From Candidatus Omnitrophota bacterium (lineage in GTDB: Bacteria; Omnitrophota; Gorgyraeia; Gygaellales; Profunditerraquicolaceae), in the NCBI GenBank assembly GCA_028717245.1, contig JAQUOD010000002.1, positions 204,772-268,771 on the forward strand: DNA of 64,000 bases, read 5' to 3'. Below the pieces are notes generated by a model that worked only from the letters and a program-made list of their open reading frames with translations, made no database searches and had not been told where the DNA came from. Numbering within the stretch: the stretch's first letter is position 1; the number at the start of each line of letters is the position of its first letter. The translations under genes were made by a program, and so were the position numbers. Below, piece by piece: positions 56 through 18,315 of this stretch.

Positions 56-3000
56 ATGAAGCGTTGTGAGGCTGCTATCATGAAATTAATCATGGAACAG
101 AACGGGACTCTTTCTGATTGGGAGGTTTTTTATTATTACGGTTGGTATATGCGGATAAGGAAGAAGTCAGCAGCGGCGAGCAGATTTAGCGGTTCATCTT
201 TAAGAGGTCTCCCAAATATTGTTTTGGCGCTCGGCACAGGATTTATCGCCGCAATGCTTTTAAGAGCAAATGGCCATTCCGGTATTAATTGGTTGAATAT
301 TAGCGCTGGTTTACTATTAGCCGGATTGCCCGTTTATATCATGATAAGAGGTCTTAGAAAAATTTCCATTAACGATTTATCCCAATCCCTAAAAAAACTT
401 ACCCGCGATGATATAATAGGATTTATAATCTTGGTTGGTTACCTTATTGTATATGCTGCCATTGTTTACGCGGCATTTTGGCTTATGCAACTGACGGCTG
501 CTCCTTCTTTAGCCCCGCACTCAATGTTGCCCAATATGCCGTTTGGCCAGGCCTTACCCTTCACTATTTCAGATTTAACTGGTTTCTTCATTAGCGCCGC
601 TTTTTTGGTTGGGATGGCACGGGGTTCGATAGGCGGCGCAGGCCAGCGTAATATTATAAGGGAAAGTGGCAATGCCAAAAAGATAATGCCCGAAGACGAA
701 ATAAGGGCCTCTGTGACGAATTTATATGTATGGTTTGACATTCTTAAAGGAACGGATCCTAAGATATCAGCGGCTTTAAGTAAGATTTATTCTGCTTATC
801 AAGAATTAGATTTTAGTCAGAATAATCGGGCTAAATTAAATGAGTTAACAGAAGCAAAAGCGAGGCTTAAGGAAGGATTAGAGCAGCTCCGAGGGATTCT
901 TCTGGGGAGAGAAAATGAGCTTACAGGAGTTATGGCTAAACTACTGGAGAAACAGCGGGTAGCAAGTAAAGACGCACCAACAAGAATAGGAGAAATGAAG
1001 AGGGAGATTAAAGCAGCGCTTGCAAAACTGGAGAGCAAAAGCACTAATGCGCTTAGCCTCAATCCCTATGCATTTTCACTTATATTTTCCATTCTTGCGC
1101 CTTTTATGCCGGTTTTAGGCCCGCTTGTTAGCATTGCCGTGAACCAGATGTACTCTCTGCCGGCTTGTATATTTGTGATTGAGGCAATATTGAATAAAAC
1201 TCAAGCCAAACGCAAGCCCAAAGAAGATATGGTTAAAGAAACAGAAGATGAAAAATCCGAAAGGCTCAGGCAGGCAAAAATATATTATAAAGAAGGGCTT
1301 TATTATGCTCAGGCAGGGCTTACTGATTTCGAAAAGGGAAATGTAAAAGCAGCAAGGAGAAACTGGTTTACGGCGATACGAAACTTTAAGGAGGCAACTG
1401 ACTCAAGCTGGGAATATACCGAAGCTTATTATAATTGGGCATTAGTTTATTACAGATACTATAATACGTTTGTTAAGCAGCCATCGCCACGGGGGGTCTT
1501 CGCTAAAATTGCAGCAGCAATAAGAGGAGACGAAGAGCATAAAAAGGAAGTTTGGGAGGAATATTTATATGAGATTAAGTTTATCTTAGGATTGTTTCCA
1601 GAATTGCGGAAGAAGCTAGAGGGTAAGATTATTATACCGGATTTAGATTCAGGAGACATTTCACCGAGCCCATCTGGAGGTAATAATTCTCTAGCCCATG
1701 GTGGCGATGTTGGCAAGGCACAATTTAGCTTAGGGAGCGGTTCTGAAGCATCAGGAATAGAGTTGGTTACCGGTCGTGAACCTCGGGAGCAATATTACGG
1801 ACCAGTTCCTGACGGGGATCTATTTAGGGGCAGCACAAGAGCCAAGCATAAATTTGAGGATGGAATAACAAGAAGCAGCGGCAGAGCGCCAGGCAAGAAA
1901 ATCTATAAAAGCCAGATTATTAGAGATGCAATTAGAGATAGAATTCCTTGTTTCTTCCTGATGCTAGTGAAAAACATTGATTTTGCGGTACCGATAAAAA
2001 GGATAATCGTCCCCAGAGATATTGCGAATTTGGAATTAGAAGGGAAAACCCCTTTTGAAAAGAAAGTTATCAGGTTAAGCCATGATTTACTGAACCAACT
2101 AAAGAATCAACATAATATTGAGGTCTTGATTAAAGAAGGCGATGATTCTATTCTAGAACATGAAACTGAAGACTTTGGAATTACTTTAAACGGCGCAGAA
2201 GGAAGGTTAAGCCCGGAGAATTTTAAGGAGATCTCAAGAAAAACCGGAAGCCTTCTAGCTGGACTACATAAGGCAGGCGTAATCGCTTCGGATTCGCACC
2301 CCGCAAATTTTATCGTTAATACTGAAACGATGGAAGTAAGAAGAATAGATTTTGAGTGGGTTGACATATTTGATAAAGAGTTAGCCCGTGAGTTAACGCA
2401 AAAATATGAATTTTCCGAAGCAGAATTAAGAGGATTAGGTATCCATTCAACCAGAATACCCAGCAGTGAAATGACTAAAGAAATTCTTACTCTTATTTGG
2501 ACTGAAAAGGACAAGTCGAAAAATTTGCATAATAGTTTATTTATCTGGCCATTTGCCGGGGGGTATTTATCAGTCAAGCATGAGTTTGATGAATGGGAAG
2601 AAGACCTTGAGAGAATGCTGTATTATTTACTCTCATTTAGAGACAAGGAAGAAGGCAATTTGGGAGGCAAAGCAAATACAGAAGCCGAGCAGTATGGCAA
2701 AACAGTTCCTGAAAGTGAGCAGCCGGTAAAGGAAACAAGGCCTAATCCTGCCAGCTCAATAGAGGTGATAGAGGCAACCCCTAAATACCGCCAAGATATA
2801 ATCTCTCTCATACATAGCTCTTTCCCCGAGCTTGACAATGAAATGGAGAGGATCCTTCGGGATAATCGGGTGTTTGTGGCTTTGGTTAAAGTTAGGGAAG
2901 AATGGGAATTCGCCGGAGCGGTCCTGACCGCAATAAAGAGGGTTATCAATGAAAAAGGAGAAATTGTTCTTCCGGCTACTTATATTGATGCCTCAAAGCA

Positions 3001-6000
3001 CGAGAGTAATTTCACAGCGCAGCCCCATAGCTTTTGGTTGATTGATTTTGCTATCGCTGTTTCTCCGGAAATTAAAGTAAAAGGCATATCTGATGCTTTA
3101 ATCCAGGCTACGGATAAGTATACCGATGAGCAGGGATTAATGAGGCCAGATGCTGCCAGCCGCGCACGGGATGCAGGAAAGTTTAAAGATGCCCTTCTGC
3201 AGGAGCGGGCAAAGGCCCTTCCTGAAGCTAAAGCAAAAAACCTTTCTGGCCTTAACATAATGATACGTTACCTTATGACTACAACGCTAAACCCCAAAGG
3301 AGTGGTTAAAGATTCATTCGCAAAATATGCAGCAATGCCCAACGGTATGAGCCCGTTTTTGCTCTGGCTTAAGGAATCCAAACGCCTGGCAAGGTCAGAT
3401 GGCGTGGATGATAGCCCTTATGCCAATTTTGTTAACGTTATTTCCCCCCTCTTAGAAGAAATTGACAAACACTCCCCTAAAGACCTCGAAGGCTTCCTGA
3501 AAACTTATGATGATTTTGATTATTCCCGCCTTGCCCAGCCGGACGTGATTGAAGAATTTGGAAAACTTCTGCGTGACTTCATCAATGGTTCCTCCAGATA
3601 TGAAGACCAGATAATAGCCGGCCTGCATATGCGCCTGGGAGCCCATATCGGAAGGATAACCAAAAACAGCCTCCCCGGCCACCCCGAGACTTTAGATATG
3701 AACATCCATATGTTTTATCCAGAAAAAGTAAATGACAATATTCCACCGGCAGATAATCCGGTTTTGCCTGTACAAGGGGTGTCCCCAAATGGGACGTCCT
3801 CAGAAGCGCATGCAAGGAATATGATTCCTCCGCTTGTGTTGACTCTTTATTTTGCCAGGATGGCTGGTTTTGCTATGCCTTCTTTAGAATTATCTGCGAG
3901 CGAGATCGATCCGGTGATAGTTATACTTTTGCTTATGTTTTTATTTGTGATAAAAAAGGTAGTGGTGGAAGAGATTGATAAAAGGAGTGAAAAATTGAAT
4001 AGGGCCAGGATTGACAAGATACTCAATAGTAACGAAATAAAGGCAGATGATACAGTGGCAAAGCCCGTTATTAAAAACTATAATTATCCGGAAAGAATTA
4101 CTCCGCATAATGCTCCTATAGCAAAGGTCTTTAAAGAACCCTTGCCGCCTTCAGCCCGGTTTTATCCAAAGACAGAACCTTCATTAAGATTGATGGACTC
4201 TAAATATCAGAATATCGCAAGGGAGTTTAAAGAAGCCATTCAGAATAAACCTTTCCCAACTGAAGGTATGTTCCTTGAAATAGGCCACGGCGGGAATCTA
4301 TCTTCCCCGGGTTTTGCTATTAAATTTGGGCTTGAGCCTTGGGGCATAGATTTAGATAGGCATGCTAATGCCGATACGATAAATGATATTGTCGGACAGG
4401 CTGAAAATATCCTGCCTTTGATAAAAGATAATTCTTTTGATGTGATAGCTGTTATTGATACCTTTGGAATTATGACCAGAGAAAATAGTTTTTATAAAGC
4501 TCAACCCATAGATCCGGTATGGTTAATAATGCAAATAGCCCGGATATTGAAACCCGATGGTTATTTGGTTATCGCAGATTTTTCCGCAGATTTAGAAGAT
4601 TTGAAGTTAAAGTATGGGATGGAACTTAATAAATTAGCTGAAGGCGCAGGCCTTAAAGTTTTGAGATATCGCATTGAAGGCAGTAGGGCAATCTCTATTA
4701 TCTATAAGCCATCAGAATTATCTCCATTAGCCCCCCGCGTAGGAGCCGCTGGTTTGGAGATAGCGGAATTTAAAAAGCCGACAGAAATAGGGTTAGGTCA
4801 AAGGCCAAGTACTGCTGTTACCCTAGATGATGTTCAACTACCTTCTGTTATAGAAAAAGACCGTAAGGATGCAGCGTTAAGCAGCCGCTCAAGGATAGAA
4901 ATAGAAGAAGTGCCTATTCCTGATGCTATGGCAGAAGACGCCAGCAAGGACTCCTTTAGTTTTAAGGAATATATGGACGCTGCGTTATATAATCCTGGCT
5001 GGGGATTTTATGGCTCAGGAAGGGTGCAGTTTACGCGAGGCAAAGATTTCGAGACCTACCCTAAAATACTTTCTCCTGTATTCGGAGAGTTAGTCTGCGA
5101 ACAGGCTTTTAAGATGTGGAAAGGCATGCTGGCTGCAAAGACTATAAGCGAGGCAGAGGAATTTACAATAGTAGAATCTGGCGCAGGCGAAGCAGATTTA
5201 TCCTATGATTTATTATCCCACGCCGAAGAGTTGGCAAAATCGGATGAGCTTTGGAATATTTTCTACCGGCAGCTCGTATATATTAGTTTAGAGCGTTCGC
5301 CGAAATTAGTAAAAAGGCAGAAAGAGAAAAACGCAAAATTCAGTCCGAAATTTCGGGTTATAGAAGGGGATGCCCGCGATGTAGCTAAGCTTATCAAAAA
5401 ACCTATTAAAGGATTAATCCTTTCTAATGAACTGATGGATAATTTCGCTGTTTATAAGGTTAGATTTGAACCAGACGGCGCAACAAAGACTCCCTTAGCC
5501 ATTCCTTTAATCAGCGTTGAGCTCGCCAAGGAATTAAGCAAAAGAGGCATAATCCGAGAATTGGATTTAGCAATGAGAAACGAACAATTGAAGAAGGATT
5601 TTTATCTCCCTAACAAGAAAGGGAAACTTTATATATCTAAAAGCGATTTCTTAAAGATTAAGGCAGAATTAAGCAAGCAAGAATATAGACAGTTGGAAGA
5701 TAGCTTTGATACCCAGATAGATTTTGTTGAGGCGTATTTGGATATTAAATACTTCCCTGAATTATTCGATTATGTCCATAAGAACAGAAGGGAGCTATCT
5801 TTTGCTATAGCCAAGGAAGCAAAAGCAGTTACTGCTTATCTTAGCCCGGATGCGGTTAGGTTTATTCAGTCCGCAGCAGGAATTTTAGATAAAGGTTATA
5901 TCCTGACTATAGATTACGGAGCAAGTACGCAGGGACTCTTGAATCCAGAATACATAAAGCATCCGATAATGATGTATGGCCCTGTATCTGTACGCGATAT

Positions 6001-9000
6001 CTTCGATGCCAATCCTTATCATTTACCGGGAAAATGCGATATTACCGTAGGTGTAGATTTTACCTCTTTGGTAGAAACCGGCGAAAATGCGGGATTGAAA
6101 TTAAAATTCTATGGTGTTCAGGGGAATCTTGAGTCAGGGATAACCAATTTGTCTCATGATGAGGAATCGAAGAGCAGGATAGTAGCCCGCCGCCTTAAAA
6201 GAGAGTACCCTCAGGCGAAGGCTCCTGAAGGTTTGCAAGAGGGAATAAGAGGCCAGGTCGAAGATGACATAAGGAGTTTTAAAAAAGATTTTCTTGGTGG
6301 CAATAGCGTTAAAATGCTAATACAGCAGAAAGAAGGCACTGATGAACAGTATGAATACAAGATACCTTCCGTAGTATCTCTTGAAGAAATGAGTTTATTC
6401 GCCAGGAGAAAAATCCCGGCCAAGCAAAGGCCTTTATTCCTTGAGCCGCGGATTAACGCCGCGATATTTATCGATGATTTTTGTAATTTAGGTTTACCAG
6501 AAAAAATAGACGCAGACGTTTTAGTTAAAGCTATCCGCGCATCCGGCATATTGCTGATGCCAGATAATAAAGACAATAAAAAATTTATTAAGAAAGAACG
6601 CTTTGAACCTTACGAGTTTGCTTCAAATTCCTATCCAGCTTATCACTGGTTAGTTTTTGGAGGGCAATTGGAAGCTTGCATTGCAAATCAGGCGAGAGAG
6701 ATTATATCAGGGGTTAGCGAATGCCCTGCTAACACTAAAATGTGGATTACATTACCATTGAATGCCATCGGATGTTTTTCTGGTAGAGACGAAAGAAAGT
6801 ATGGTTTACCGAGATATTTAGCAAAGTACCTTGTAAAGGAATATAGTTCATTTGCCGAAGGCTTACGGCCAATAAAGGAACCTTATACGCAAATTGATAC
6901 TAAAGACGTAGAAATTAATTTCGGGGATTGGGCAATAGTAGAATTTGATCCATACTCTAATGCGTCGATTTTTCAAGAGAATATAGGGTTAACCATATTA
7001 GAGAACGGCCGAGAACTGTGTTGTATTAAACCTGATGGCCGAAGAATGGTAGTACTTAATTTTATCTCTAAAAAACCAGAAAATGTATTCAGTTTATTGC
7101 AACAGAGTAGCGCAATCAAACAAGCCGGACAAAAAGAGAGCATATCAGGAAATAACACCCTGCCGCAAGGCACGATTAACAAAAAAACCCTTAACCCTGC
7201 CTTAGGCCCCGGAACATATGATCCTCGAGATCTGGCAACTCTTCAGGGGCAAAACAGTAATTCTGGAAAAACAGGGTCAGATTCAATTTTTTCCTATATT
7301 CTCGCCCATGATTTTATGAGCCCTAATAAAGTGGGGTATATTCAGGCAATAAGAGCTATGTTACCGGTAAAGAATCAAAGGAGGAGGTGCCTTTATATTG
7401 CCTTAGGCGGAGATTATTCAACCAGCCAAATGGTATCGCAGGCCCTAGAAACTATTTGTGTGGATAGGCTTCCTTTTGAGCCTTTAATAACACTATCTAA
7501 AGAAGAGGCGGATTTATATAAAGCCGTGTATATCAAAGACAGGTATTATGCGAATTTTGCTTCTTCAGTCCAATCAGTTGAAGGCGCAGTATTAAGGCGC
7601 GTAGGCGCTAAAGAATATTTTCTTTGGGAATTGGAAATGATGGGAGCCCAAGATATAGAAATAAGTTTTGATACCGCCCTTAATGCCAATAAGATTAGTT
7701 TTATCCTCCCGGGCGAATCGATGCAAAAAAGCATAATTTATTTTAGTTTTGACGCCAGGAATATAGAAGCCTACCCTCAGGCTCTGCTCAACCTTATAAA
7801 AGAAGGATTAGATTCTTTTATTTTTAAAGCCAGCGACGGCGTGGTTTTACCTCTTCAGATCAAAGACATAATTACCAACTCCTTTGATCCGGAAGCTATG
7901 CTGTTTCTGGATAGCGAAGCTTCATTTAGCCACACTTATCTTGAAGAGATAGATGAGGCAAAAATGGGGCAAATCAGGAATTTTGAAAAAATGGGTTATG
8001 CCTTTGGATATGAAAAAGTTCGTTTATTAAGGCCTAAAAAGCCCGAAATCCCCTCCCTCCCCGCAGGTGGGATAGAGGTTGAGAAAAGAAAGACACGGCA
8101 GCATCATTCGAATGACATATATCAGGAACCGTCCCCGCTGCCGTCTCTGCTAGCTAAGAATAGAATAGAGGTTTACCTAGATGATATTGCCCCCAGATTT
8201 TTTAAATTAATGAGAGCTGAATTTTCAGATGATAACAGGCTTTGTCTTATTTCTTCCAGAATTACGGGTTTAGTCCTGGCAGATAAATTTGGGATTCCTA
8301 TAGATAACAAGAGCGCCAATAGGATGGAGGTAAGGTTATGCCCTTATTTTGATGATGGCGGGAAACGTTACCATCAGATGCTTATAATTTATCGCAATAA
8401 TAACCCATGGCTTTTTGTTTATCCTGTCCTGGGATTGTTCTATAGCGGCTTAGAAGGCAGGATAATCTGCAGGGATTATCAGAAATTAAGCGAGTACAAT
8501 TTTATGGACCAGGGAAGGACAAGCTGGGTTCTCGATGAGCAGTTACAACAAAGAATAGAAAGGGTAGCCCAAGAGATTGTAGGGGATGGAAATTTAGGCT
8601 ATGGCAGCATAGCGACAACACAGCTGGCACCTTTTGAGAAGATATCCAGGGCATTAAAAATAGAAAAACTGCTTAATGAAAACTTACGGCAGGAAGGATT
8701 AAATACTCCCATTAAACATGAAGGAACAAAGGGGCTTTTCTACGAATCGGATATTTCTGATGTGGTCAAGGCCTGTCAGGTAATAGGCCTTGAGGGTAAA
8801 AGAGGCATTGATTTAGGCGCAGGCGTTGGCCACGCAGTGTTTGCTATGGCAGTAGCCGGCCTTCGGGGAGTAGGCATAGAATGGGAAAACCATTTAATTG
8901 GTATTGGTAATGGCCTCTTAGATAACAAAGAATTGAAGAAACTCGTTGATACCAGCCGCGTTGACTTAAGGCAGGGCGATTTTATGCAGGAAGATTTAAG

Positions 9001-12000
9001 CCAATACGACATAATTTACTATTATTGGAATGGCGCAGGTTATGGCAATGAAAATAAAGCCCAGGATGCGCTTATGCAAAAGATTAAGCAAGAAATGAGG
9101 CCGGATACCCTGTTGATTATTTACAGAGGGCTTGATACGCTTTCCCTCCCGGGATTTGAAAGAAAAGATTACCCCGGAATTCCCGAGACGGTGAGAGTAT
9201 TTAGGAAAGCCGAGGATATACGCAGCGATTTAGATAGCCCTGATGCAGAAATTAGAAGCAAAGCCATAAGTACTTTGCTGCGCTCAGACGAATACACGGA
9301 TAAAGAAAAGACACTTTTATTATTAAAAAGAGTTATGCAGGACGATGATAAATCAGTACGCACAGAAGCAAGAAGGGCGCTTACTATTCTCTGGTATGTA
9401 ATTGAAGGAAGGCCGAATAATAATTTTGCTGAAGTCCTGCAAGATGTGGGGCAGGGGCTTGCAAAACCAGAACGCGAAACTTTATTAGATATTCTGGTAA
9501 ATTCATTCCTTAACCGGGAAAGCCGCTATGCGCTTAACCGCTTTTGTTTGGATACATTTATGAAAGAGAATCCTAAAGTAAAGATTAATATCGACGAACG
9601 AATTCTGGAAGCAGACAATGTTGCCCCATATCTTATAACCATTGCCGGGCAGCTTTCCGGAATAAATCAGGAGAGCCTGAATTTAGAAATTATATTTTTG
9701 GATAACGTAAATGCAATTGAGAACAGGATTATGGAATCAGAGATTACCTTGCGTAAATATGGGGAGAACGGGCCAAGGGAGATGTTGATTAATATAGCCG
9801 CATTTAAAGAAAAAGCAGGCTATTCTTCGCAGGAGAACGTTATTTTCGCCAAAAAGATTTCCGAGGTATTGAATCAGTGCATTAATAAAGATAGCTGTGA
9901 TTTCGCTCCGATTGACAATACCAAAGCGGCATTGGAGGGTTTTGTGCCTTTGGATGAAAGCTTTCTCTGGAAGATAAGCAATTTATATTGGCAGTTAATG
10001 GGGAAGGATTCTTTTAAAGACCCGTACGCAGATACTTCGTTTTTCCCTGAATTACCCACGCACTTGAGAAAGGTACCCAACGGTTTATATGTTTATCACA
10101 GTTTTGCTTCTGCCTGCGCGGATAAATTCTCTAAGTATCTTTGCGAATTAGAAAATAGAGGCGATTTACCCGGGAGGATTATTGTTCAAGAATGGGGCGT
10201 GGGGAATGCCGATTTTCCGGAAAAGTTCCTGGGCGCCCTAAAACGGCTAAGCGCAGAAAAAGTAAAACAGCAGGGAGGGACGGATTTTTACGGGAGGGTA
10301 ACTTATGTAATAGGCGATATATCCCTTAAGATGTTAGAGAATATACGGCAGGCAGAATGGTACCCCCAGCATAAAGAGAAGATAGAATTTTCCGTAATGG
10401 ATGCCGTAAACCCTCCCCAGGCTTATCGGGGCAGGACTCTATTATTGATAAATAGCTATCTCTATTGCGTATTGCCGGCAAAAGTGATTGCGAAGAAAGA
10501 GGGCCGTTTTTACGAGATGTGCGTAAGGGCGTATCTGAATAAAGACATACGTATTAAAACCCGGGAGGGAAAGGACGTTTCAGCCGAAGAATTCACAGAG
10601 ATGCTGGTAAAAAATGATATACAGGCGCTTTCAAAACTCAACCCGTCTTTCTGGTATGCGTTGAATTATGAAGAGGTATATAAAGAATTTGATCCTCGGA
10701 GTAATAGCTGGGGTGATTACATAGCATGGATAACGCAAGGTAAAGATAATTGCCGGTTCATAATTAATAATCAGGCGTTAGAGAGCTTAACAAAGTCGCT
10801 TGATTTATTAGATGAAAAAAGAGGGATGATTTGGATATTTGAATTGACTTCGCCGGATGCATTAAATAACCCCCTTGCCGGCCCGATGAGTTTTGGCCCT
10901 ACGCTGGCTACACCTGTAAATACATCCTTATTGGAATACGCAATTAATAAAAACCGCGGTTGGAAAATCTCGGTTTCTCCTTCAACTATGTTTTTGCCGG
11001 AAGATACGAAGCGCGCCCAAAAATATACCTATATTGAAGTAGAAAAGAACAAATCCCCGCATATAGATACAAAAAATACGGCCTTATGTTTCAATCCCTT
11101 CATATTTTCGCTTCTTATCCCTTCCCTTATGCCCCTTATTATATTTTTGGGCGTGGCGGTATTTCCCTCTGCTCCTTTCATACCCGCGTGGCTGCCTGTA
11201 ATCAAAACAATGGTTACTAGCGCTGTAGTAAAGATTCAAAATATAGTTAGTAAGATAAAGGATAGATTCATACAAATAAAGCCAGTCCTTTATTTAGATA
11301 TATTAATATTCTTTTTTACAATCGGCATATTTATTCCTCTCTATTTCTTCCGAGATAAGATAGGAGAATTAGGAGCCTATGGCTATTTTGTGGCGTTCTG
11401 TATCTCAATACTCACTAACCTGACGGTATTTTTCCCTGTTCCAGGCATTGTAGCAACAGGTGCTTTAGCAACTGTGTTTAACCCTTTTTGGATTGGTATC
11501 GTGGTTGGCATAGGGGCGACTATCGGACAGATTACAAGTTATGGTTTTGGTTATAGCGGTAAATCCATAATTAATGGAAATCGTATCTACCAAAAACTGA
11601 TGAATTGGATACAGGGTTTGCTAATATACAAAAAAATAAATAACTGGGTAGAGAAACGGCCAAACCTGTCTATTTTTATTAGTTACTTTTTTCCTATTCC
11701 GGGTGTATCTGATACTGTCGGAGCAATAGCCGGTAGCGCAAAGTACCCTTTTTGGAAATACTTTATCTTTTGTATGTTAGGCAATATCCCTAAACATATC
11801 TTTTATGCTTATTTTAGCGCCTGGGGATTAAATTTATTTTTCCCGGATATTTTTAAATTGGGTATCTCCGGAAATCCTTTAATCTCTTTACCTCTTCTGG
11901 CAATAGCAAACTTACCTATAATGGGATATGATGATTTTGAAGGAGAAGAAGGAGAAAACCACAGAAAGAGGCCAAAGAATAAAAAAAGAAGAGAGGAAGA

Positions 12001-14530
12001 CGATATCGAAGCCCGGCTTAAGAATGTGGTGAGATTTACAGATGTGCAAGAAGCTGTTTCTAAAGCGCCAGTTAAAGAAAGATCTGTATCTGCGCAGGCA
12101 GTGGTTGTAGAGAATTCAGCAGAGGGAAGAAAAATTACTCCCAAGCAAGCCAAACCGGTTACAAAAATCAAGGCCACGGGAGTTGATAGGTTAAGGCAGA
12201 TTTCCGTTTTGCTTGAAAGAGGATTGGCGTCCGATGGGTTTACGGGATTTCAAAGAGAGGCTTATGAGATTAGCGAAGAAATGGCAGCAGAGCAAGGCAA
12301 TGTTGCCTTAAAACAACTCTACGATTTAATTACAAGGCCGGATTTACACCAAGGCGTAAACAGGTGGATAATCGGAGGAATAAGTAATTATTTTAAGCGT
12401 CCGAGCGTGAGCTTAAAGGATATTATGCTTTTACTTGCCGACGAATTTTGGCAAGATAACGCGGGAACAGGAAATATGATAACCGGCGTAATGATAACGG
12501 CGGTTAAAAGGCGATTACCCGAATATAAGGGCGCTGCAGGGATCGTCGAATTACACGTCCTGCTCCACGATAAGAATATTCGTAAGTATAAAGGCCTGCG
12601 CGCCTTGTTGTACAATCAAATCAGGGGCGATTTAAATAATATAATTTCCCTCAACGAATTAATTGAATTATATTTAAGCCAGAGATGGTTCGAGGGCGTG
12701 GGCAGGAATATGGTATTTCCCAGAATAGAAGAATTGATCGGTAAAGGCGCGTTAGCGCGGGTTGATTTTTTTAAGCTGGCTAACTGGTATATGGACCCTT
12801 TTCTTGATTCGGAAAGAAATGAAAAATCATTTTGTGAAGAACTGAATAGAAGGATTAGGGGCTTAGATTTAAATACAATAGATTCATACCTCGTTGATTC
12901 CGGCATCCCTAGAGAAGTAAAAGAATTAATACGGAAAATAAGAGGTGATGAACTTAAGGGTTTCTACGAAGAAAAAGAAAGGGAAAAGAAAGAGGCAGAT
13001 AGAAAACAAAAGATAGGGGGTCATTTGGCTTGCGTAGAGAGATTAAGCGCGGAGGGTAAATTAGAGGAATCGTCGGCAGAATTACGGGTACTACTTGAAG
13101 TTGAGCCTGAAGATGAAGGAGCGTTGTTAGAGTTTATGCTGCAACGGTGCAGCAACGCACAAGTCTTAAATAATTATATCCGTATCAGGAAAGATTTTAT
13201 AATAGATAAAATTCTGGAGGCCAAAGAAGGCAGGCCAGATTATTTCTATTGTTTGCTTGAAGTCATGCAAAAAGTTTACGGCCGGCAGGATATAGACAAA
13301 AAGGTCGCAGAGGAATTTAAAGCTCAGGCGCAAGAAATAATAAAATCCATAATTGACAGGGACATCAAAAAAATAAACCATATCTTTACGCTTCCTGCCA
13401 GCAGAGAGGTAAAACTTGGCATGCGCGATGAGATTCTGGGAGGCCTTTTTCTAAAGACGGATGATTTAGTAAAACGATTCCTGGATACCTTATCTGAAAA
13501 TGAAATCCCTGTGTTTCTGGAGTCAATGTCAGGAGCCGTCGCTTTTTATGATTTATGCGCGCGCAAGGATATAAGTAATGCCATAAGGGCGCAGCTTAGG
13601 CAGATAGTAGATTCAGCCATTGATTTTATATACTTTAACCGTTCGTTTGACTTGCCGCGCAATACTATGCTGTTTATTAAATGCCTGCTTAGTAAGGAAG
13701 AGTTTTCTCAGACTGTATTCAGCGTTCAGGCAGAGTTGATGCCTTATTTACAAGAAGACAATCAGGATAAACTGATGGGATTTGTGATGGATAAAAATAT
13801 TTCTTATAAGGAAAAGAAGGCAATTTTATTCCGGTTAGCGATGTTGTGGACAGAGTTTTTGAATAAAGACGGAAGCCCAGGGCAGATAGCTAATCTGTGC
13901 GATAATGCTGACCCGCTGGTTAGGGCGTATCTTTATTATGCCTTGTCTTTGATACGCAGCCCTAAATATGACGAGGCGAAGGCGATACAACAAGAGCTTG
14001 CGCGTAAAATAGCGGGTCTGGTTAAGGCAGGACAGATAAATAGAAAAGCGTTGATGGATATTCTTTATGAACTTCAGCCGGTAGATAGTCGTAACAGGTT
14101 GTTCTTAATCTACTGTATAGTGGCATCTTTAGCGGTTGAGAGAAAGATTTCCGCGTTCATTCCCAAGGAAAATCCGGGCGGTAAGATGTTAACAAAAGAT
14201 AGCAGTAAGTTGATAAAAGAAGCGTTGGCCGAAGCAGCAGAGAGCGATTTTGTAAAGAGCGATAGCTGGCATCAAGAATTGATTGAAGACGCGTTATGGT
14301 TGCTTGAGCAGGATGATAATTTAAAGAAACATGCCCTGAGGAATATAATTGAATTGATTACAGCTGCGGGGAGCTCAAGTAATATTTGGGCACTCTATAG
14401 GCGTAAGATTGACGCTTTGAAGAAGAAAAGAAAGGGCACTCTTGGCAATGTAGTTACTATTCCGGGCAAACAGGAACCGTTTACAAGGCAACAGCGTTCG
14501 CCTGGATGGGATGGTTTTATTTATAAGTAG
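56..14530 (+). CDS. giant multidomain membrane protein (4,824 aa): N-terminal TM bundle and coiled coil, two atypical kinase-like modules, Methyltransf_11-like SAM MTase, two MidA/NDUFAF7-like MTase modules, DOT1-like MTase motif, HEAT-like repeats, embedded DedA/VTT-like multi-TM block, helical C-terminal third
   Basis: Single uninterrupted 14.5-kb frame in an AT-rich genome; the other five frames show only ORFs under 160 aa. ATG at 56, but this frame has no stop back to base 2, so the true start may lie upstream of the window. Motifs were read directly from the translation (see findings). Confidence 0.85.
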   Translation: MKRCEAAIMKLIMEQNGTLSDWEVFYYYGWYMRIRKKSAAASRFSGSSLRGLPNIVLALGTGFIAAMLLRANGHSGINWLNISAGLLLAGLPVYIMIRGLRKISINDLSQSLKKLTRDDIIGFIILVGYLIVYAAIVYAAFWLMQLTAAPSLAPHSMLPNMPFGQALPFTISDLTGFFISAAFLVGMARGSIGGAGQRNIIRESGNAKKIMPEDEIRASVTNLYVWFDILKGTDPKISAALSKIYSAYQELDFSQNNRAKLNELTEAKARLKEGLEQLRGILLGRENELTGVMAKLLEKQRVASKDAPTRIGEMKREIKAALAKLESKSTNALSLNPYAFSLIFSILAPFMPVLGPLVSIAVNQMYSLPACIFVIEAILNKTQAKRKPKEDMVKETEDEKSERLRQAKIYYKEGLYYAQAGLTDFEKGNVKAARRNWFTAIRNFKEATDSSWEYTEAYYNWALVYYRYYNTFVKQPSPRGVFAKIAAAIRGDEEHKKEVWEEYLYEIKFILGLFPELRKKLEGKIIIPDLDSGDISPSPSGGNNSLAHGGDVGKAQFSLGSGSEASGIELVTGREPREQYYGPVPDGDLFRGSTRAKHKFEDGITRSSGRAPGKKIYKSQIIRDAIRDRIPCFFLMLVKNIDFAVPIKRIIVPRDIANLELEGKTPFEKKVIRLSHDLLNQLKNQHNIEVLIKEGDDSILEHETEDFGITLNGAEGRLSPENFKEISRKTGSLLAGLHKAGVIASDSHPANFIVNTETMEVRRIDFEWVDIFDKELARELTQKYEFSEAELRGLGIHSTRIPSSEMTKEILTLIWTEKDKSKNLHNSLFIWPFAGGYLSVKHEFDEWEEDLERMLYYLLSFRDKEEGNLGGKANTEAEQYGKTVPESEQPVKETRPNPASSIEVIEATPKYRQDIISLIHSSFPELDNEMERILRDNRVFVALVKVREEWEFAGAVLTAIKRVINEKGEIVLPATYIDASKHESNFTAQPHSFWLIDFAIAVSPEIKVKGISDALIQATDKYTDEQGLMRPDAASRARDAGKFKDALLQERAKALPEAKAKNLSGLNIMIRYLMTTTLNPKGVVKDSFAKYAAMPNGMSPFLLWLKESKRLARSDGVDDSPYANFVNVISPLLEEIDKHSPKDLEGFLKTYDDFDYSRLAQPDVIEEFGKLLRDFINGSSRYEDQIIAGLHMRLGAHIGRITKNSLPGHPETLDMNIHMFYPEKVNDNIPPADNPVLPVQGVSPNGTSSEAHARNMIPPLVLTLYFARMAGFAMPSLELSASEIDPVIVILLLMFLFVIKKVVVEEIDKRSEKLNRARIDKILNSNEIKADDTVAKPVIKNYNYPERITPHNAPIAKVFKEPLPPSARFYPKTEPSLRLMDSKYQNIAREFKEAIQNKPFPTEGMFLEIGHGGNLSSPGFAIKFGLEPWGIDLDRHANADTINDIVGQAENILPLIKDNSFDVIAVIDTFGIMTRENSFYKAQPIDPVWLIMQIARILKPDGYLVIADFSADLEDLKLKYGMELNKLAEGAGLKVLRYRIEGSRAISIIYKPSELSPLAPRVGAAGLEIAEFKKPTEIGLGQRPSTAVTLDDVQLPSVIEKDRKDAALSSRSRIEIEEVPIPDAMAEDASKDSFSFKEYMDAALYNPGWGFYGSGRVQFTRGKDFETYPKILSPVFGELVCEQAFKMWKGMLAAKTISEAEEFTIVESGAGEADLSYDLLSHAEELAKSDELWNIFYRQLVYISLERSPKLVKRQKEKNAKFSPKFRVIEGDARDVAKLIKKPIKGLILSNELMDNFAVYKVRFEPDGATKTPLAIPLISVELAKELSKRGIIRELDLAMRNEQLKKDFYLPNKKGKLYISKSDFLKIKAELSKQEYRQLEDSFDTQIDFVEAYLDIKYFPELFDYVHKNRRELSFAIAKEAKAVTAYLSPDAVRFIQSAAGILDKGYILTIDYGASTQGLLNPEYIKHPIMMYGPVSVRDIFDANPYHLPGKCDITVGVDFTSLVETGENAGLKLKFYGVQGNLESGITNLSHDEESKSRIVARRLKREYPQAKAPEGLQEGIRGQVEDDIRSFKKDFLGGNSVKMLIQQKEGTDEQYEYKIPSVVSLEEMSLFARRKIPAKQRPLFLEPRINAAIFIDDFCNLGLPEKIDADVLVKAIRASGILLMPDNKDNKKFIKKERFEPYEFASNSYPAYHWLVFGGQLEACIANQAREIISGVSECPANTKMWITLPLNAIGCFSGRDERKYGLPRYLAKYLVKEYSSFAEGLRPIKEPYTQIDTKDVEINFGDWAIVEFDPYSNASIFQENIGLTILENGRELCCIKPDGRRMVVLNFISKKPENVFSLLQQSSAIKQAGQKESISGNNTLPQGTINKKTLNPALGPGTYDPRDLATLQGQNSNSGKTGSDSIFSYILAHDFMSPNKVGYIQAIRAMLPVKNQRRRCLYIALGGDYSTSQMVSQALETICVDRLPFEPLITLSKEEADLYKAVYIKDRYYANFASSVQSVEGAVLRRVGAKEYFLWELEMMGAQDIEISFDTALNANKISFILPGESMQKSIIYFSFDARNIEAYPQALLNLIKEGLDSFIFKASDGVVLPLQIKDIITNSFDPEAMLFLDSEASFSHTYLEEIDEAKMGQIRNFEKMGYAFGYEKVRLLRPKKPEIPSLPAGGIEVEKRKTRQHHSNDIYQEPSPLPSLLAKNRIEVYLDDIAPRFFKLMRAEFSDDNRLCLISSRITGLVLADKFGIPIDNKSANRMEVRLCPYFDDGGKRYHQMLIIYRNNNPWLFVYPVLGLFYSGLEGRIICRDYQKLSEYNFMDQGRTSWVLDEQLQQRIERVAQEIVGDGNLGYGSIATTQLAPFEKISRALKIEKLLNENLRQEGLNTPIKHEGTKGLFYESDISDVVKACQVIGLEGKRGIDLGAGVGHAVFAMAVAGLRGVGIEWENHLIGIGNGLLDNKELKKLVDTSRVDLRQGDFMQEDLSQYDIIYYYWNGAGYGNENKAQDALMQKIKQEMRPDTLLIIYRGLDTLSLPGFERKDYPGIPETVRVFRKAEDIRSDLDSPDAEIRSKAISTLLRSDEYTDKEKTLLLLKRVMQDDDKSVRTEARRALTILWYVIEGRPNNNFAEVLQDVGQGLAKPERETLLDILVNSFLNRESRYALNRFCLDTFMKENPKVKINIDERILEADNVAPYLITIAGQLSGINQESLNLEIIFLDNVNAIENRIMESEITLRKYGENGPREMLINIAAFKEKAGYSSQENVIFAKKISEVLNQCINKDSCDFAPIDNTKAALEGFVPLDESFLWKISNLYWQLMGKDSFKDPYADTSFFPELPTHLRKVPNGLYVYHSFASACADKFSKYLCELENRGDLPGRIIVQEWGVGNADFPEKFLGALKRLSAEKVKQQGGTDFYGRVTYVIGDISLKMLENIRQAEWYPQHKEKIEFSVMDAVNPPQAYRGRTLLLINSYLYCVLPAKVIAKKEGRFYEMCVRAYLNKDIRIKTREGKDVSAEEFTEMLVKNDIQALSKLNPSFWYALNYEEVYKEFDPRSNSWGDYIAWITQGKDNCRFIINNQALESLTKSLDLLDEKRGMIWIFELTSPDALNNPLAGPMSFGPTLATPVNTSLLEYAINKNRGWKISVSPSTMFLPEDTKRAQKYTYIEVEKNKSPHIDTKNTALCFNPFIFSLLIPSLMPLIIFLGVAVFPSAPFIPAWLPVIKTMVTSAVVKIQNIVSKIKDRFIQIKPVLYLDILIFFFTIGIFIPLYFFRDKIGELGAYGYFVAFCISILTNLTVFFPVPGIVATGALATVFNPFWIGIVVGIGATIGQITSYGFGYSGKSIINGNRIYQKLMNWIQGLLIYKKINNWVEKRPNLSIFISYFFPIPGVSDTVGAIAGSAKYPFWKYFIFCMLGNIPKHIFYAYFSAWGLNLFFPDIFKLGISGNPLISLPLLAIANLPIMGYDDFEGEEGENHRKRPKNKKRREEDDIEARLKNVVRFTDVQEAVSKAPVKERSVSAQAVVVENSAEGRKITPKQAKPVTKIKATGVDRLRQISVLLERGLASDGFTGFQREAYEISEEMAAEQGNVALKQLYDLITRPDLHQGVNRWIIGGISNYFKRPSVSLKDIMLLLADEFWQDNAGTGNMITGVMITAVKRRLPEYKGAAGIVELHVLLHDKNIRKYKGLRALLYNQIRGDLNNIISLNELIELYLSQRWFEGVGRNMVFPRIEELIGKGALARVDFFKLANWYMDPFLDSERNEKSFCEELNRRIRGLDLNTIDSYLVDSGIPREVKELIRKIRGDELKGFYEEKEREKKEADRKQKIGGHLACVERLSAEGKLEESSAELRVLLEVEPEDEGALLEFMLQRCSNAQVLNNYIRIRKDFIIDKILEAKEGRPDYFYCLLEVMQKVYGRQDIDKKVAEEFKAQAQEIIKSIIDRDIKKINHIFTLPASREVKLGMRDEILGGLFLKTDDLVKRFLDTLSENEIPVFLESMSGAVAFYDLCARKDISNAIRAQLRQIVDSAIDFIYFNRSFDLPRNTMLFIKCLLSKEEFSQTVFSVQAELMPYLQEDNQDKLMGFVMDKNISYKEKKAILFRLAMLWTEFLNKDGSPGQIANLCDNADPLVRAYLYYALSLIRSPKYDEAKAIQQELARKIAGLVKAGQINRKALMDILYELQPVDSRNRLFLIYCIVASLAVERKISAFIPKENPGGKMLTKDSSKLIKEALAEAAESDFVKSDSWHQELIEDALWLLEQDDNLKKHALRNIIELITAAGSSSNIWALYRRKIDALKKKRKGTLGNVVTIPGKQEPFTRQQRSPGWDGFIYK

Positions 14531-14604: not shown

Positions 14605-15294
14605 GTGAAAGATAGAAGACGCAGTATCCGCTGGCAGATAAATCAACAGGCAAAGGTGAAATTAGAGGGCGCCTATGCCTTTATCCAATGTTTTATTAAG
14701 GATATCAATTTTACGGGCCTGCAGATTTCTCTCCGTATGAAGTTGCCGGAAGATACATTTTTAAAGTTTAACCTGGTTTTATCTGAAGAGGCTACTTTAG
14801 ATATAGAGGCATGGGTAGTTTGGCATAAAAGGAGAGATGATTTTAATGTCTACGGCCTTCGTTTTACTCAGATAAATGAAGAAAACAGGGGGGAAATCTA
14901 TAAATTTCTCTATAAATATTTCCCTGAGGAGGTGGTTAAAAGATGGGGACAAAAAACAGCAGTTAATACAGGAGGCGAGACTATGCAAGACAAGAGGATT
15001 TTTGAGAGGTTTCCCGCGAGTTTACCTTTAAGATTCATCGACTTAAGCGTAAATAAAGAGAGCCAGGCGCAGACACAGGATATCAGCGCTAAAGGGATTG
15101 GGCTAATGACAGATAAAGAGCTTAGCCCGCAAACGCCTTTAGAGATGTGGCTGGATATCCCTGACCACCGCGAGCCGCTTTATACCCGGGGAGAAGTGGC
15201 CTGGTCTAAGCTATTGGGGCCCGATAAATACAGGGTAGGAGTTAATTTAGAAAGGGCGGACTTAATGGGTATAGCGCGGATATTAAGGTCATAA
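14605..15294 (+). CDS. tandem PilZ-domain protein (c-di-GMP receptor-like)
   Basis: Two repeats of the PilZ signature: RRRSIRW ... DINFTGLQI, and KRIFERF ... DISAKGIGL. GTG start, with AAAAAGG upstream. Confidence 0.7.
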   Translation: MKDRRRSIRWQINQQAKVKLEGAYAFIQCFIKDINFTGLQISLRMKLPEDTFLKFNLVLSEEATLDIEAWVVWHKRRDDFNVYGLRFTQINEENRGEIYKFLYKYFPEEVVKRWGQKTAVNTGGETMQDKRIFERFPASLPLRFIDLSVNKESQAQTQDISAKGIGLMTDKELSPQTPLEMWLDIPDHREPLYTRGEVAWSKLLGPDKYRVGVNLERADLMGIARILRS

Positions 15295-15301
15295 TTTTTA
15301 G

Positions 15302-15340
15302 GGCTCTGGCTATGTTAAGAGAAGAAAAGCCAGTTTTTTA
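15302..15340 (+). terminator. candidate terminator after the PilZ gene
   Basis: Stem CTGGCT / AGCCAG with a 16-nt loop, followed by TTTTTT. Confidence 0.45.
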
Positions 15341-15342
15341 AC

Positions 15343-15371
15343 TTGACAGAACTTTAATTATATTATATACT
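15343..15371 (+). promoter_or_regulatory. sigma70-like promoter, TTGACA-17-TATACT
   Basis: Exact -35 TTGACA (15343-15348), 17-nt spacer, -10 TATACT (15366-15371). It lies about 190 bp upstream of the second PilZ gene. Confidence 0.5.
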
Positions 15372-15377
15372 TATGAC

Positions 15378-15486
15378 AAAGATAACAAGAAAACGTTTTT
15401 TTCATAAGAGTTTTTTAAAAGATTTAAAAATCAGGGCCACGGTTGAAATTGGACTTGAAAAGATCCAAAGAAACGCGGCCTTTTTA
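15378..15486 (+). ncRNA. candidate small RNA or 5' leader (about 110 nt) ending in a hairpin plus T-tract
   Basis: The promoter above is followed by a non-coding stretch that ends in GGCCACG...CGCGGCC TTTTTA (15435-15486). No ORF over 20 codons lies in between. Confidence 0.3.
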
Positions 15487-15564
15487 TTTATTGTATAAAT
15501 TTAGGGTTTGTGTTAAAATAAATTTTTAAAGGAATAAAGCCACGGAGAAAGGAAGGAGAGAAAT

Positions 15565-15906
15565 ATGGAGGACCGCAGGGTGTTCGCCCGGATAAATACC
15601 AGTTTTCCTGTAAGATTCTTAGACCCCACTCGCGGGATAGAGGGCCGGGCAGAGACGGTGGACATTAGCGCTAATGGCTTGGGTTTAGTTACTCAAGAAA
15701 ACTTATCGTCCAGGACGCCTTTAGAGATTTGGTTGGACATTCCTGACCAACATGAGCCGCTGTATACCCGGGGGAATGTGGTCTGGTCACAGGCCTCTTC
15801 CGATGCAGGGCAGCAGCGCGTAGGCATACGTTTGGAAAAAGCCGAACTCATGGGCCTGGCGCGCGTATTATGGATGCGGAAACAAGCAGAGGATAGGTTT
15901 AATTGA
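15565..15906 (+). CDS. single PilZ-domain protein, paralog of the C-terminal half of the upstream tandem PilZ protein
   Basis: RVFARI ... DISANGLGL motif. Roughly half the residues are identical to residues 130-229 of the upstream protein. RBS GGAAGGAGAG. Confidence 0.7.
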   Translation: MEDRRVFARINTSFPVRFLDPTRGIEGRAETVDISANGLGLVTQENLSSRTPLEIWLDIPDQHEPLYTRGNVVWSQASSDAGQQRVGIRLEKAELMGLARVLWMRKQAEDRFN

Positions 15907-15914
15907 GTTTGTTA

Positions 15915-17249
15915 ATGAAAAGGATTTGTTGCGCGTTTTTATTTGTTTTTTGTTCTTTTTTATGCCTCGCCGGTTGCGTGCCGCAGCAGTCGGATAAATA
16001 CCAAACCACCTTGACTGTCTGGCATTGGATGACCGACAGAGAAGAAGCCTTCCAGGAGTTGGCCAAAAGATATGAGGCTTCTTCCGGCGTAAAAGTAAAT
16101 TTTGAACTCTACGCGCCATCGGATGCCTACGCGCAGAAGGTGCGCGCTGCTGCCCAGGGGCAAAACCTTCCTGATATTTTTGGCGTGCTGGGCGAGACGC
16201 GGGATTTCGCGTCCTTTATAAAGGCGGGCCATGTCTTGGGCCTGACCTCCTATATGGATGCAGACAGCGCTAAATGGCGTAATACTTTTTTCAGTAAGGC
16301 CCTGGCAGTAAACGGATTCTCCGACGGTAACAGCTACGGCATCAAACCCGGCATTTACGGCGTACCCATAGATATTATGACCATCCAGATGGTCTATAAC
16401 AAGGATTTATTCAAGAAATTAGGGCTTAACCCCAATGCGCCTCCGGAAACTTTTGCGCAATTCCTGGAGATAGGAAAAAAGATATCCGCCACAAATCGTG
16501 GCGGATCGGGCGGAAAAGAGGCAAAGATGCAGGGCCTGGTTTCCGGGTGGGGAGAGATATGGATGATAGATTGTTTAGCAAACAATTACGCTTTTAATAT
16601 CATGGGCGAGGACAAGGTATTGGCCACCATAAAAGGTGAGATTCCCTATACCGATCCCGATTGGGTCAGGGTATTAACGCTTTTTAAGGAGATGCAGGAT
16701 TCGGGGGTTTTATATAACGGATTGGTGACCATGGCCAATAAGAACGCGGAGCAGTTATTTGCTAACGGAAGGGCGGTCTTTGCCTTTAACGGTTCATGGT
16801 GCGTAAATGTATATAAGTCCATGAATCCGCGCCTGGATTACGCCGCAATGCTCCTGCCAAAGGCCTCGGAAAAATTTCCGGTGAGTATCTGGGGAGGCGC
16901 CGGTTCTTCATTTATGGTAAGCGCTAAATCAAAAAATAAAGAAGAGGCAGTAAATTTTTTAAAATGGCTTACTGACCGCAGCCAACAGGCATATTTAGCG
17001 CAAACTACTTCCAACCCCCCGGCAAATAAAGAGGCGTTAAGTGAGATTCCTCCTGTCCTGGCGCAGTTTGCCGATGATATGGAGTACGCCACGCATCCGA
17101 ATACTTGGGGCGTATCCGAGTCACCCCAGGTTATAGAAACCTTTAATAGAGGGATACAGTCAATAATTATCGGCGAGAAGAGCCCCGAACAGGTAGCGCA
17201 GGAAACGCAGAAGATTAAAGAAAAAGAATTAGCAAAAAAGAAACGATGA
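15915..17249 (+). CDS. ABC transporter substrate-binding lipoprotein, carbohydrate (family 1 SBP)
   Basis: Lipobox LAGC after a hydrophobic signal; overall extracellular solute-binding protein pattern. ATG 15915 is preferred over the TTG at 15903 reported by the ORF track. Confidence 0.7.
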   Translation: MKRICCAFLFVFCSFLCLAGCVPQQSDKYQTTLTVWHWMTDREEAFQELAKRYEASSGVKVNFELYAPSDAYAQKVRAAAQGQNLPDIFGVLGETRDFASFIKAGHVLGLTSYMDADSAKWRNTFFSKALAVNGFSDGNSYGIKPGIYGVPIDIMTIQMVYNKDLFKKLGLNPNAPPETFAQFLEIGKKISATNRGGSGGKEAKMQGLVSGWGEIWMIDCLANNYAFNIMGEDKVLATIKGEIPYTDPDWVRVLTLFKEMQDSGVLYNGLVTMANKNAEQLFANGRAVFAFNGSWCVNVYKSMNPRLDYAAMLLPKASEKFPVSIWGGAGSSFMVSAKSKNKEEAVNFLKWLTDRSQQAYLAQTTSNPPANKEALSEIPPVLAQFADDMEYATHPNTWGVSESPQVIETFNRGIQSIIIGEKSPEQVAQETQKIKEKELAKKKR

Positions 17250-17276
17250 TTTCGTTATTGGGTTACTTGCGTTTTT

Positions 17277-17327
17277 GCGTTATAGCGTTCGAACGCAATA
17301 ACGCTATAACCCTATAACGCTATAACG
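17277..17327 (+). promoter_or_regulatory. 28-bp imperfect palindrome centred on GCGTTCGAACGC, plus three CTATAAC(G) direct repeats, between the SBP and permease genes
   Basis: GCGTTATAGCGTTCGAACGCAATAACGC is self-complementary except for one position per arm. It is followed by GCTATAAC CCTATAAC GCTATAAC immediately before the ATG at 17328. Confidence 0.4.
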
Positions 17328-18206: not shown

Positions 18207-18208
18207 AC

Positions 18209-18315
18209 TCGCACCTGGTGCGAAACTGAGATTGTACCGTTTCTGAATTTAAGCTTGTACCTGGTACCCGATTGGTTTCGCAGACGGTATAAGATTGGAT
18301 CTGCACCTGGTGCCA
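18209..18315. repeat. degenerate composite copy of REP family A (GCACCWGGTGC palindromes)
   Basis: GCACCTGGTGCGAAACTGAGATTGTACC, then GTACCTGGTACCCGATTGGTTTCGCA, then GCACCTGGTGCC. It matches the other family A copies with substitutions. Confidence 0.55.

Follow-up and report, generated by a model that had tools for sequence, protein, structure and literature searches.

A DedA-superfamily (VTT) domain embedded in a giant protein encoded by an Omnitrophota contig

What does a membrane domain that normally makes up a small protein of its own do inside a giant one? The 64,000-nucleotide (nt) stretch analyzed here (the window), from contig JAQUOD010000002.1 of a Candidatus Omnitrophota bacterium, raises this question, as it opens with a giant open reading frame (ORF) of 4,824 codons uninterrupted by stops (nt 56-14530, + strand), in which a preliminary description had noticed a DedA/VTT-like block of 8 to 10 hydrophobic helices followed by a hyper-charged linker. 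The block is a genuine DedA-superfamily (VTT) domain embedded in the giant protein, with a family match far beyond chance. Our preferred reading, to which we give a probability of about 55%, is that a functional VTT domain was recruited from a small stand-alone lineage into a giant, membrane-anchored and mostly cytoplasmic multi-enzyme protein. The finding settles no long-standing question, but as DedA proteins are almost always single-domain proteins, an intact VTT core inside proteins of 1,000 to 4,800 residues is a new architectural context for the superfamily.

Identity and organization of the VTT block

The Pfam profile VTT_dom (PF09335; gathering score of 33.9) matched the whole protein with 48.3 bits (E value of 1.8e-12) and a 415-amino-acid (aa) excerpt with 54.8 bits (E value of 1.7e-14). 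This hidden Markov model (HMM) match was the check that the preliminary description had proposed for its DedA/VTT call, and the call stands. The membrane block spans nt 11096-11929 (aa 3681-3958) and comprises ten hydrophobic helical segments by Kyte-Doolittle (KD) hydropathy and AlphaFold secondary structure, within the range first estimated, and the peptide FPVPGIVATG...GYSGKS quoted at the outset lies at aa 3793-3837 (nt 11432-11566). By hydropathy, the dense hydrophobic block covers aa 3676-3950, and the approximately 2,300 residues N-terminal of it contain nothing of comparable hydrophobicity. The block is internal to the protein, as had been noted, at 76 to 82% of the chain, closer to three-quarters than to the two-thirds originally given. 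Its parts and what follows them are listed below, all on the + strand, with the basis of each assignment.

nt 11096..11347, +: adapter helices TMa (aa 3681-3702), TMb (aa 3709-3727) and TMc (aa 3743-3764); hydropathy and lysine plus arginine (K/R) counts
nt 11372..11476, +: re-entrant loop 1, turning at FFPVPG between half-helices aa 3773-3789 and 3797-3807; AlphaFold
nt 11441..11818, +: aa 3796-3921, matching PF09335 VTT_dom over positions 2-121 of the 123 in the profile
nt 11483..11572, +: TMH1, Gly-rich, aa 3810-3839, 30 residues; AlphaFold and sequence
nt 11573..11659, +: basic amphipathic extramembrane loop, 6 K/R in 29 aa; sequence
nt 11660..11737, +: re-entrant loop 2, turning at FPIPG between half-helices aa 3869-3878 and 3884-3894; AlphaFold
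nt 11750..11839, +: TMH2, aa 3899-3928, 30 residues; AlphaFold and sequence
nt 11876..11929, +: TMd, an extra C-terminal transmembrane helix, aa 3941-3958; hydropathy, low model confidence
nt 11939..12004, +: hyper-charged linker EGEEGENHRKRPKNKKRREEDD, aa 3962-3983; sequence
nt 12008..14527, +: C-terminal tail, 840 aa, all alpha-helical at low confidence; single-sequence AlphaFold

The AlphaFold2 model of aa 3670-3975, built on 116 sequences, has a mean predicted local distance difference test (pLDDT) score of 78, with block means of 86 to 98 across model residues 131-260, one dip excepted. Helices corresponding to TMa, TMb and TMc appear at model residues 12-33, 43-69 and 74-95, the last two separated by the K/R-rich loop QNIVSKIKDRFIQIK. 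In DedA proteins, loop 1 turns at a conserved Pro-Gly and is followed by TMH1 and an extramembrane region, and loop 2 turns at two prolines one to two residues apart and is followed by TMH2 (Okawa et al.). The re-entrant pattern predicted for the block is borne out on both counts: loop 1 has the Pro-Gly turn and loop 2 a P-x-P turn, and the modeled half-helices of 17 and 11 residues (loop 1; block-mean pLDDT of 76 to 98) and of 10 and 11 residues (loop 2) compare with 30 residues each for TMH1 and TMH2. As modeled, the order of loop 1, TMH1, basic loop, loop 2 and TMH2 is the canonical DedA order as defined by Okawa et al. Loop 2 carries a conserved Asp (D3886) and is devoid of basic residues. 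Within the basic amphipathic loop we also found a 13-aa (39-nt) tandem duplication, RIYQKLMNWIQG / LIYKKINNWVEK (nt 11582-11656), whose copies are identical at 22 of 36 nt, an equally good match occurring in only 1 of 4,815 in-frame windows; this duplication of the amphipathic helix is not present in any aligned relative.

Relatives and rarity of the embedding

A HMMER scan with the 295-aa block against 1.84 billion representative proteins recovered 1,077 relatives at an E value of ≤1e-3, 327 of them at ≤1e-10. The closest matches are stand-alone proteins of 176 to 215 aa (the nearest, of 176 to 195 aa and including P0001 and P0002, are 43 to 46% identical to the block), and nearly all of the best 150 of the 1,077 relatives have 100 to 310 aa, in agreement with the initial remark that such proteins are usually stand-alone and of about 200 aa. 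Among these best 150 there are three long proteins, given below, to which P0008, a fragment related to P0014, can be added; P0014 and P0031 have soluble flanks on both sides of the VTT domain.

P0005 (locus L001): 1,610 aa, VTT at aa 76-282
P0014 (locus L003): 1,063 aa, VTT at aa 416-617
P0031 (locus L002): 1,627 aa, VTT at aa 1262-1464

Embedded VTT domains are rare, with four long relatives besides the giant protein. A pattern scan of Joint Genome Institute (JGI) metagenomes gave 80 loci, every one a stand-alone ORF with at most 43 residues after the match and a stop-to-stop length of 151 to 320 aa, except for a 418-aa ORF present twice. GTDB genomes were scanned with the whole protein and again with the VTT alignment, neither scan returning a relative, and a profile search with alignment A1 returned only six proteins, small or short. 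A six-frame HMM search revealed no second VTT/DedA gene in the window. By BLASTP, the long relatives show no similarity to the giant protein outside the VTT block, nor do the tails of the four embedded relatives resemble one another. A neighbor-joining tree of 124 cores groups the five embedded sequences together and places the giant protein beside P0005. Single-domain proteins make up 90 to 99% of the DedA subfamilies, the known fusions being to PAP2 and rhodanese domains, both found occasionally in COG0586, and to pyridine-nucleotide oxidoreductase (Todor et al. 2023). The stand-alone relative P0152 has an ordinary housekeeping neighborhood that offers no functional clue.

Conservation of the core and evidence for function

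Conservation was computed over 115 relatives of the VTT block. All 14 columns conserved at ≥90% are kept in the giant protein, as are 25 of the 32 conserved at ≥70%; P3794, P3796 and G3909, for instance, are shared by 99%, 92% and 98% of the relatives, respectively. The TMH1 position 3825 is Gln in the giant protein versus Glu in 83% of the relatives, and Gln is also found there in the embedded P0005, P0014 and P0008 and in the stand-alone P0001, P0002 and P0003, with Ala in P0031 and the Glu retained in P0004. The substitution, common to the giant protein and most of its nearest relatives, speaks against strict proton coupling. In motif 2 (Gxxx[VILM]xxxx[FY]), the giant protein has G-SAK-Y-PFWK-Y, which keeps the glycine and the terminal aromatic residue.

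Several points weigh against a functional domain recruited from a stand-alone lineage. The change from Glu to Gln in TMH1 could signal loss of function instead of uncoupling. The classical motif 1 ([F/Y]xxx[R/K]) is replaced by YGFGY, which ends in Tyr; such an ending has been reported for TMEM41A/B, and P0005 has Y-YVG-R at this place. The fifth position of motif 2 is Tyr instead of an aliphatic residue (it is Phe in P0001). The re-entrant geometry is derived from helix lengths and motifs, TMb (KD of 1.3) and TMd (KD of 1.5) are both weakly hydrophobic, with a low pLDDT for TMd, and a single clade uniting the embedded proteins has a bootstrap value of only 52%.

The first two of these points could also mean that the VTT fold has been kept as a plain multi-helix tether that moves no lipid, the more so as the two other membrane blocks of the giant protein look like simple anchors. 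We regard this as unlikely, since all 14 subfamily-invariant positions, including both loop-turn prolines and D3886, have been kept and an anchor would not need them, and since the Gln is common to the stand-alone P0001 to P0003, which have no scaffold to anchor.

Membrane topology

Hydropathy and the positive-inside rule predict six full crossings in the VTT block, namely, the three adapters TMa to TMc, TMH1, TMH2, and TMd. Under this model, the loops proposed to be inside hold 27 K/R and those proposed to be outside 3. The inside residues are found in the upstream flank (6 in its last 41 aa), the TMb-TMc loop (4 in 15 aa), the amphipathic loop (6 in 29 aa), and the linker and tail (11 in 42 aa). 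As TMb and TMd are weak, the parity argument rests on the positive-inside rule.

The two other membrane blocks of the protein are predicted to follow the same rule. The N-terminal bundle has six helices and, by hydropathy and K/R content, both of its ends inside. A weaker hydrophobic segment (aa 1262-1280) lies ahead of the single transmembrane segment originally described at nt ~3905-3960, which makes a helical hairpin a more economical reading than a single crossing, and a K/R-rich stretch after the described segment likewise favors the hairpin (the whole hydrophobic pair occupies nt 3839-3961, aa 1262-1302). If the crossings of every one of the three membrane blocks add up to an even number, as predicted, the large soluble parts would all lie on the K/R-rich cytoplasmic side, and both flanks of the VTT block are probably cytoplasmic by these sequence rules. 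SAM-dependent (S-adenosylmethionine-dependent) methyltransferases need a cytoplasmic cofactor, and such a placement would fit the needs of the methyltransferase domains of the giant protein. It also fits a 2026 preprint on complete Omnitrophota genomes, in which giants of the TM-only type are read as cytoplasmic domains anchored in the membrane.

The preliminary description had suggested instead that the kinase-like, methyltransferase and C-terminal regions may sit in different compartments; the tail, for example, could then be exported. Parity would indeed flip if the weak TMb or TMd were no true span, and West-Roberts et al. predict many extracellular domains in giant proteins, yet call these predictions unreliable. 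We consider a split of this kind quite improbable, given the 27-to-3 distribution of K/R under the even-parity model, the basic patch right after TMd, the K/R-rich stretches that likewise follow in P0005, P0014 and P0031, the methyltransferase domains in the upstream flank, and the reading in the preprint.

The embedded relatives, for which the parity comes out alike, offer a comparison for the adapter helices. All four place a single helix ahead of loop 1 and add one helix or more behind TMH2. In P0005, P0014 and P0031 the first of these added helices leads into K/R-rich sequence, whereas P0008 ends just after it, and P0014 may carry a second downstream helix. The nearest stand-alone relatives end at TMH2 and have no residues to align with TMd, but C-terminal helices comparable to it are present in Escherichia coli YdjZ, YdjX and YqjA, so TMd can be considered an adapter and not an invention. 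In P0014 (L003 109-3300), a weak sigma-70 region-4-like helix-turn-helix (aa 270-309) lies upstream of the membrane block, which fits a cytoplasmic N-terminal flank.

The linker that follows TMd is as hyper-charged as had been described (nt 11939-12004), with 8 acidic and 8 basic residues among 22, laid out as an acidic patch (DDF just ahead), a basic patch (HRKRPKNKKRR) and a second acidic patch (EEDD). Its position right after TMd and the equivalent basic stretches of the relatives suggest that it acts as a positive-inside determinant and flexible spacer. Behind it, the single-sequence AlphaFold model of the tail is all-helical with a pLDDT of 50, and no homologue of the tail was detected; aa 3151-4400, which comprise the block with its two flanks, gave no match when searched. 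A beta-rich, bridge-like lipid-transfer partner in the tail was considered and rejected, as no strands are predicted.

If the domain is functional and the protein mostly cytoplasmic, as we prefer, the chain would arrive from the cytoplasm and cross the membrane three times, with TMa and TMb as a hairpin and TMc going outward. Loop 1 would then dip in from the outer face and TMH1 would bring the chain back to the cytoplasm, where the basic amphipathic loop would lie. Loop 2 would enter from the inner face, TMH2 would lead outward, and TMd would return the chain inside, where the basic patch RKRPKNKKRR of the linker may fix it on the cytoplasmic side, the linker serving as a flexible spacer ahead of the alpha-helical tail. 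The loop tips, meeting in mid-membrane, could form the path for lipid headgroups used by the superfamily, and the block as a whole would tie the final quarter of the scaffold to the inner membrane. The adapter helices that accompany the VTT core in giant proteins would have the effect that its two flanks end up on the same side of the membrane, and the block may be used as a topological marker that supports mostly cytoplasmic, membrane-tethered giant proteins.

Integrity of the fusion

It is very unlikely that a stand-alone VTT gene was joined to the giant gene by a mistake in assembly or frame, or that the block is made separately by internal initiation or proteolysis. The VTT-bearing genes of L001 and L002 do form ORFs of their own, each after a much larger one, and cleavage of giant proteins has been proposed (West-Roberts et al.). 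Against this, the frame stays unbroken through the 3,675 codons that precede the block and the 866 that follow it, there is no Met aligned with the N terminus of the stand-alone forms, and no peptidase domain was found with Pfam. A fusion artifact was rejected because three independent loci from other samples show the same embedding, in ORFs of 1,063 to 1,627 aa.

Subfamily affinity and possible activity

Bacterial DedA proteins split into three subfamilies, COG0586, COG0398 and COG1238 (Todor et al. 2023). COG0586 comprises the undecaprenyl phosphate (UndP) flippases, with acidic loop-1 tip residues and two arginines at the tip of loop 2. COG0398 (YdjX/YdjZ, TMEM41B-like) groups putative phospholipid scramblases without the acidic residues of loop 1 and without one or both of the basic residues of loop 2, and in COG1238 (YqaA) loop 1 is acidic and loop 2 free of positive residues (Todor et al. 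2023). The loop-1 tip of the giant protein reads LTN and PGIV in the alignment and contains neither Asp nor Glu, and at the loop-2 tip (YFFPIPGVSDTVG) Arg and Lys are absent and the conserved Asp stands in their place; alignment shows that D3886 is common to YdjZ and YqaA. The profile of the giant's subfamily scored 51.4 bits on YdjZ, 50.0 on YqaA, 20.6 on YdjX and 14.9 on YqjA of E. coli K-12.

The block fits both residue features of COG0398, with near-equal scores for YdjZ and YqaA and a low one for YdjX. With COG1238 it shares a loop 2 without positive residues, and it lacks the acidic residue of loop 1 and the single-domain state. From these sequence comparisons, the domain appears to lie toward the YdjZ/YqaA side of the superfamily. 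Undecaprenyl phosphate flipping had been mentioned at the outset as one of the roles of DedA proteins, and UptA is the sole NCBIfam match to the block (E value of 1e-4) and COG0586 contains the best-studied bacterial members, but a fusion of the giant protein with a C55-P flippase of the UptA/YqjA/YghB kind is rejected as highly improbable, as the acidic loop-1 residues and loop-2 arginines that define the subfamily are missing, the UptA score is 17.9 to 22.4 bits against an equivalog cutoff of 250, and the subfamily profile gives only 15 bits on YqjA.

Because the loop tips have neither the acidic pair nor the arginines and TMH1 carries a Gln, a scramblase-like activity is likelier than proton-driven UndP flipping. 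The most likely activity, at roughly even odds, would be passive or weakly coupled scrambling or transport of phospholipids of the YdjZ/TMEM41B/YqaA kind. For Omnitrophota-like giant genes, the VTT domain would then represent a recognizable membrane module with a testable activity.

Comparison with known systems

E. coli YdjZ (COG0398) and YqaA (COG1238) share with the block the superfamily, the order of the core, the Asp after the loop-2 turn, and the absence of the loop-2 arginine pair. In addition, YdjZ carries at its C terminus a helix and then a K/R tail, comparable to TMd and the linker. Both are proteins of 142 to 235 aa, in contrast to the 4,824-aa chain of the giant protein with its three extra upstream helices, and YqaA has an acidic loop-1 tip (PGNSE) that is missing in the giant protein.

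The eukaryotic TMEM41B and VMP1 resemble the giant protein in having a VTT domain with extra helices flanking the core, and in TMEM41B the two facing re-entrant loops have been confirmed using the substituted cysteine accessibility method (SCAM) (Okawa et al.). They differ in being endoplasmic reticulum proteins of ~300 to 400 aa without enzymatic flanks, and in that their scramblase activity has been demonstrated, whereas that of the block is deduced. UptA, YqjA and YghB (COG0586) share the DedA fold, but the giant protein has no equivalents of E39/D51 and R130/R136. The known DedA fusions are two-domain proteins, unlike the VTT domain described here, which is an internal module of a giant protein.

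The Archaeovorin-type loci of Omnitrophota resemble this one in their many transmembrane helices, their methyltransferase and HEAT content, and a pilZ gene directly downstream, but their proteins exceed 30,000 aa.

Genomic context and the pilZ neighbor

Most giant genes of Omnitrophota immediately precede small pilZ homologues, the layout being that of the giant gene and pilZ, then a solute-binding protein, permeases and a glycosyl hydrolase (West-Roberts et al. 2023). The window has the same gene order, and downstream of the giant ORF we found the following genes.

nt 14605..15294, +: two-domain PilZ gene, 74 nt 3' of the giant ORF
nt 15903-17249: solute-binding protein
nt 17328-19171: permeases, followed by a major facilitator superfamily (MFS) gene
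nt 20800-23145: glycoside hydrolase family 2 (GH2)-like gene

On account of this layout, we infer that the locus is a smaller member of the Omnitrophota giant-gene class. It weighs against the assignment that its basis is the layout and no marker gene. The class was described with proteins of >30,000 aa and a divergent SecA-DEAD domain, and the protein found here has 4,824 aa (its frame being open at the start of the window) and no such domain. A type II secretion/pilus-like locus upstream is another feature of the class, and the window begins 55 nt 5' of the giant gene. The main texts of West-Roberts et al. 2023 and of the 2026 preprint make no mention of DedA or VTT, and a literature search returned no paper pairing Omnitrophota with DedA.

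The pilZ gene recurs next to two of the embedded relatives. In L001, P0005 is followed 36 nt downstream by a 110-aa PilZ gene, and in L002, a 6,884-aa gene lies 18 nt upstream of P0031, which is followed by a 109-aa PilZ gene. The second domain of the window PilZ is 52 to 54% identical to both of these proteins (E value of about 1e-38). A long VTT-bearing gene with a pilZ gene downstream is thus a recurrent neighbor relation in the window, L001 and L002, and a pilZ gene was found downstream of VTT in none of the 80 JGI metagenome loci. The three PilZ proteins share the terminal motif ...ERA(D/E)LMG(I/M)ARI(L/F)RS. The window PilZ has two domains versus one in the relatives (L001 4891-5223 and L002 12936-13265).

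Besides the VTT block, only one part of the giant protein has a clear relative, an unannotated 279-aa module (nt 7220-8044, aa 2389-2663) that is 40% identical (E value of 4e-53) to a region of the 6,884-aa gene of L002 (4837-5628). Neither copy of the module has a Pfam match.

It is tempting, but distinctly speculative, to consider the VTT block and the adjacent pilZ gene a conserved terminal cassette of giant-gene loci of the Omnitrophota type, in which a cyclic di-GMP-responsive PilZ protein would control a scramblase built covalently into a giant cytoplasmic enzyme scaffold. The cassette could then couple the work of the scaffold's enzymes to a local redistribution of lipids or expansion of the membrane, as at the contact site of a predator with its prey or of an epibiont, and would correspond, in bacteria and within a single polypeptide, to the eukaryotic pairing of a VTT scramblase with a giant lipid-handling protein.

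Extent and domain content of the giant ORF

The frame of the giant ORF is already open at nt 2-55, so that the edge of the window may cut the gene. As nt 1-55 are AT-rich and a GAGG lies at nt 68-71, 8 nt 5' of a second ATG (nt 80), the gene start is probably within the window, at nt 56 or nt 80, and might conceivably lie further upstream. Nucleotide 80 may fit better than nt 56 as the real start. The domain content can be given as follows.

nt 56..14530, +: giant ORF, with a bundle of six membrane helices at its N terminus, a stretch weakly resembling kinases, HEAT repeats, the VTT block, and a tail predicted to be all-alpha

Pfam identified at least three SAM-methyltransferase-like domains (Methyltransf_28 with 99 bits, Methyltransf_31/11, and a weak Methyltransf_25), and no SecA-DEAD (no SecA match at an E value of ≤1), glycosyltransferase or peptidase domains. 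The sole match of the whole protein to the Protein Data Bank (PDB) with phmmer was a COG1565 methyltransferase. The kinase-like region (nt 2180-2420, aa 712-790) has weak NCBIfam matches to Bud32 and lanthionine-synthetase kinase domains (12 to 17 bits, E values of 0.003 to 0.03) and no Pfam kinase match.

Other genes in the window and related loci

In L002, a 2,485-aa fusion of phosphofructokinase, glyceraldehyde-3-phosphate dehydrogenase (GAPDH) and phosphoglycerate kinase (15038-20884) lies downstream of the pair of giant genes. In the window, three consecutive ORFs of 382, 419 and 540 aa (nt 23254-27410), 3' of the GH2-like gene, have no Pfam match at an E value of ≤1e-5. Further downstream, nt 38557-48223 form a phosphate-uptake block with a response regulator, a PAS histidine kinase, a DUF2490 protein, a PstS-like binding protein, two permeases, two ABC ATPases, PhoU, a PHO4/Pit transporter, and a PhoU_div protein.

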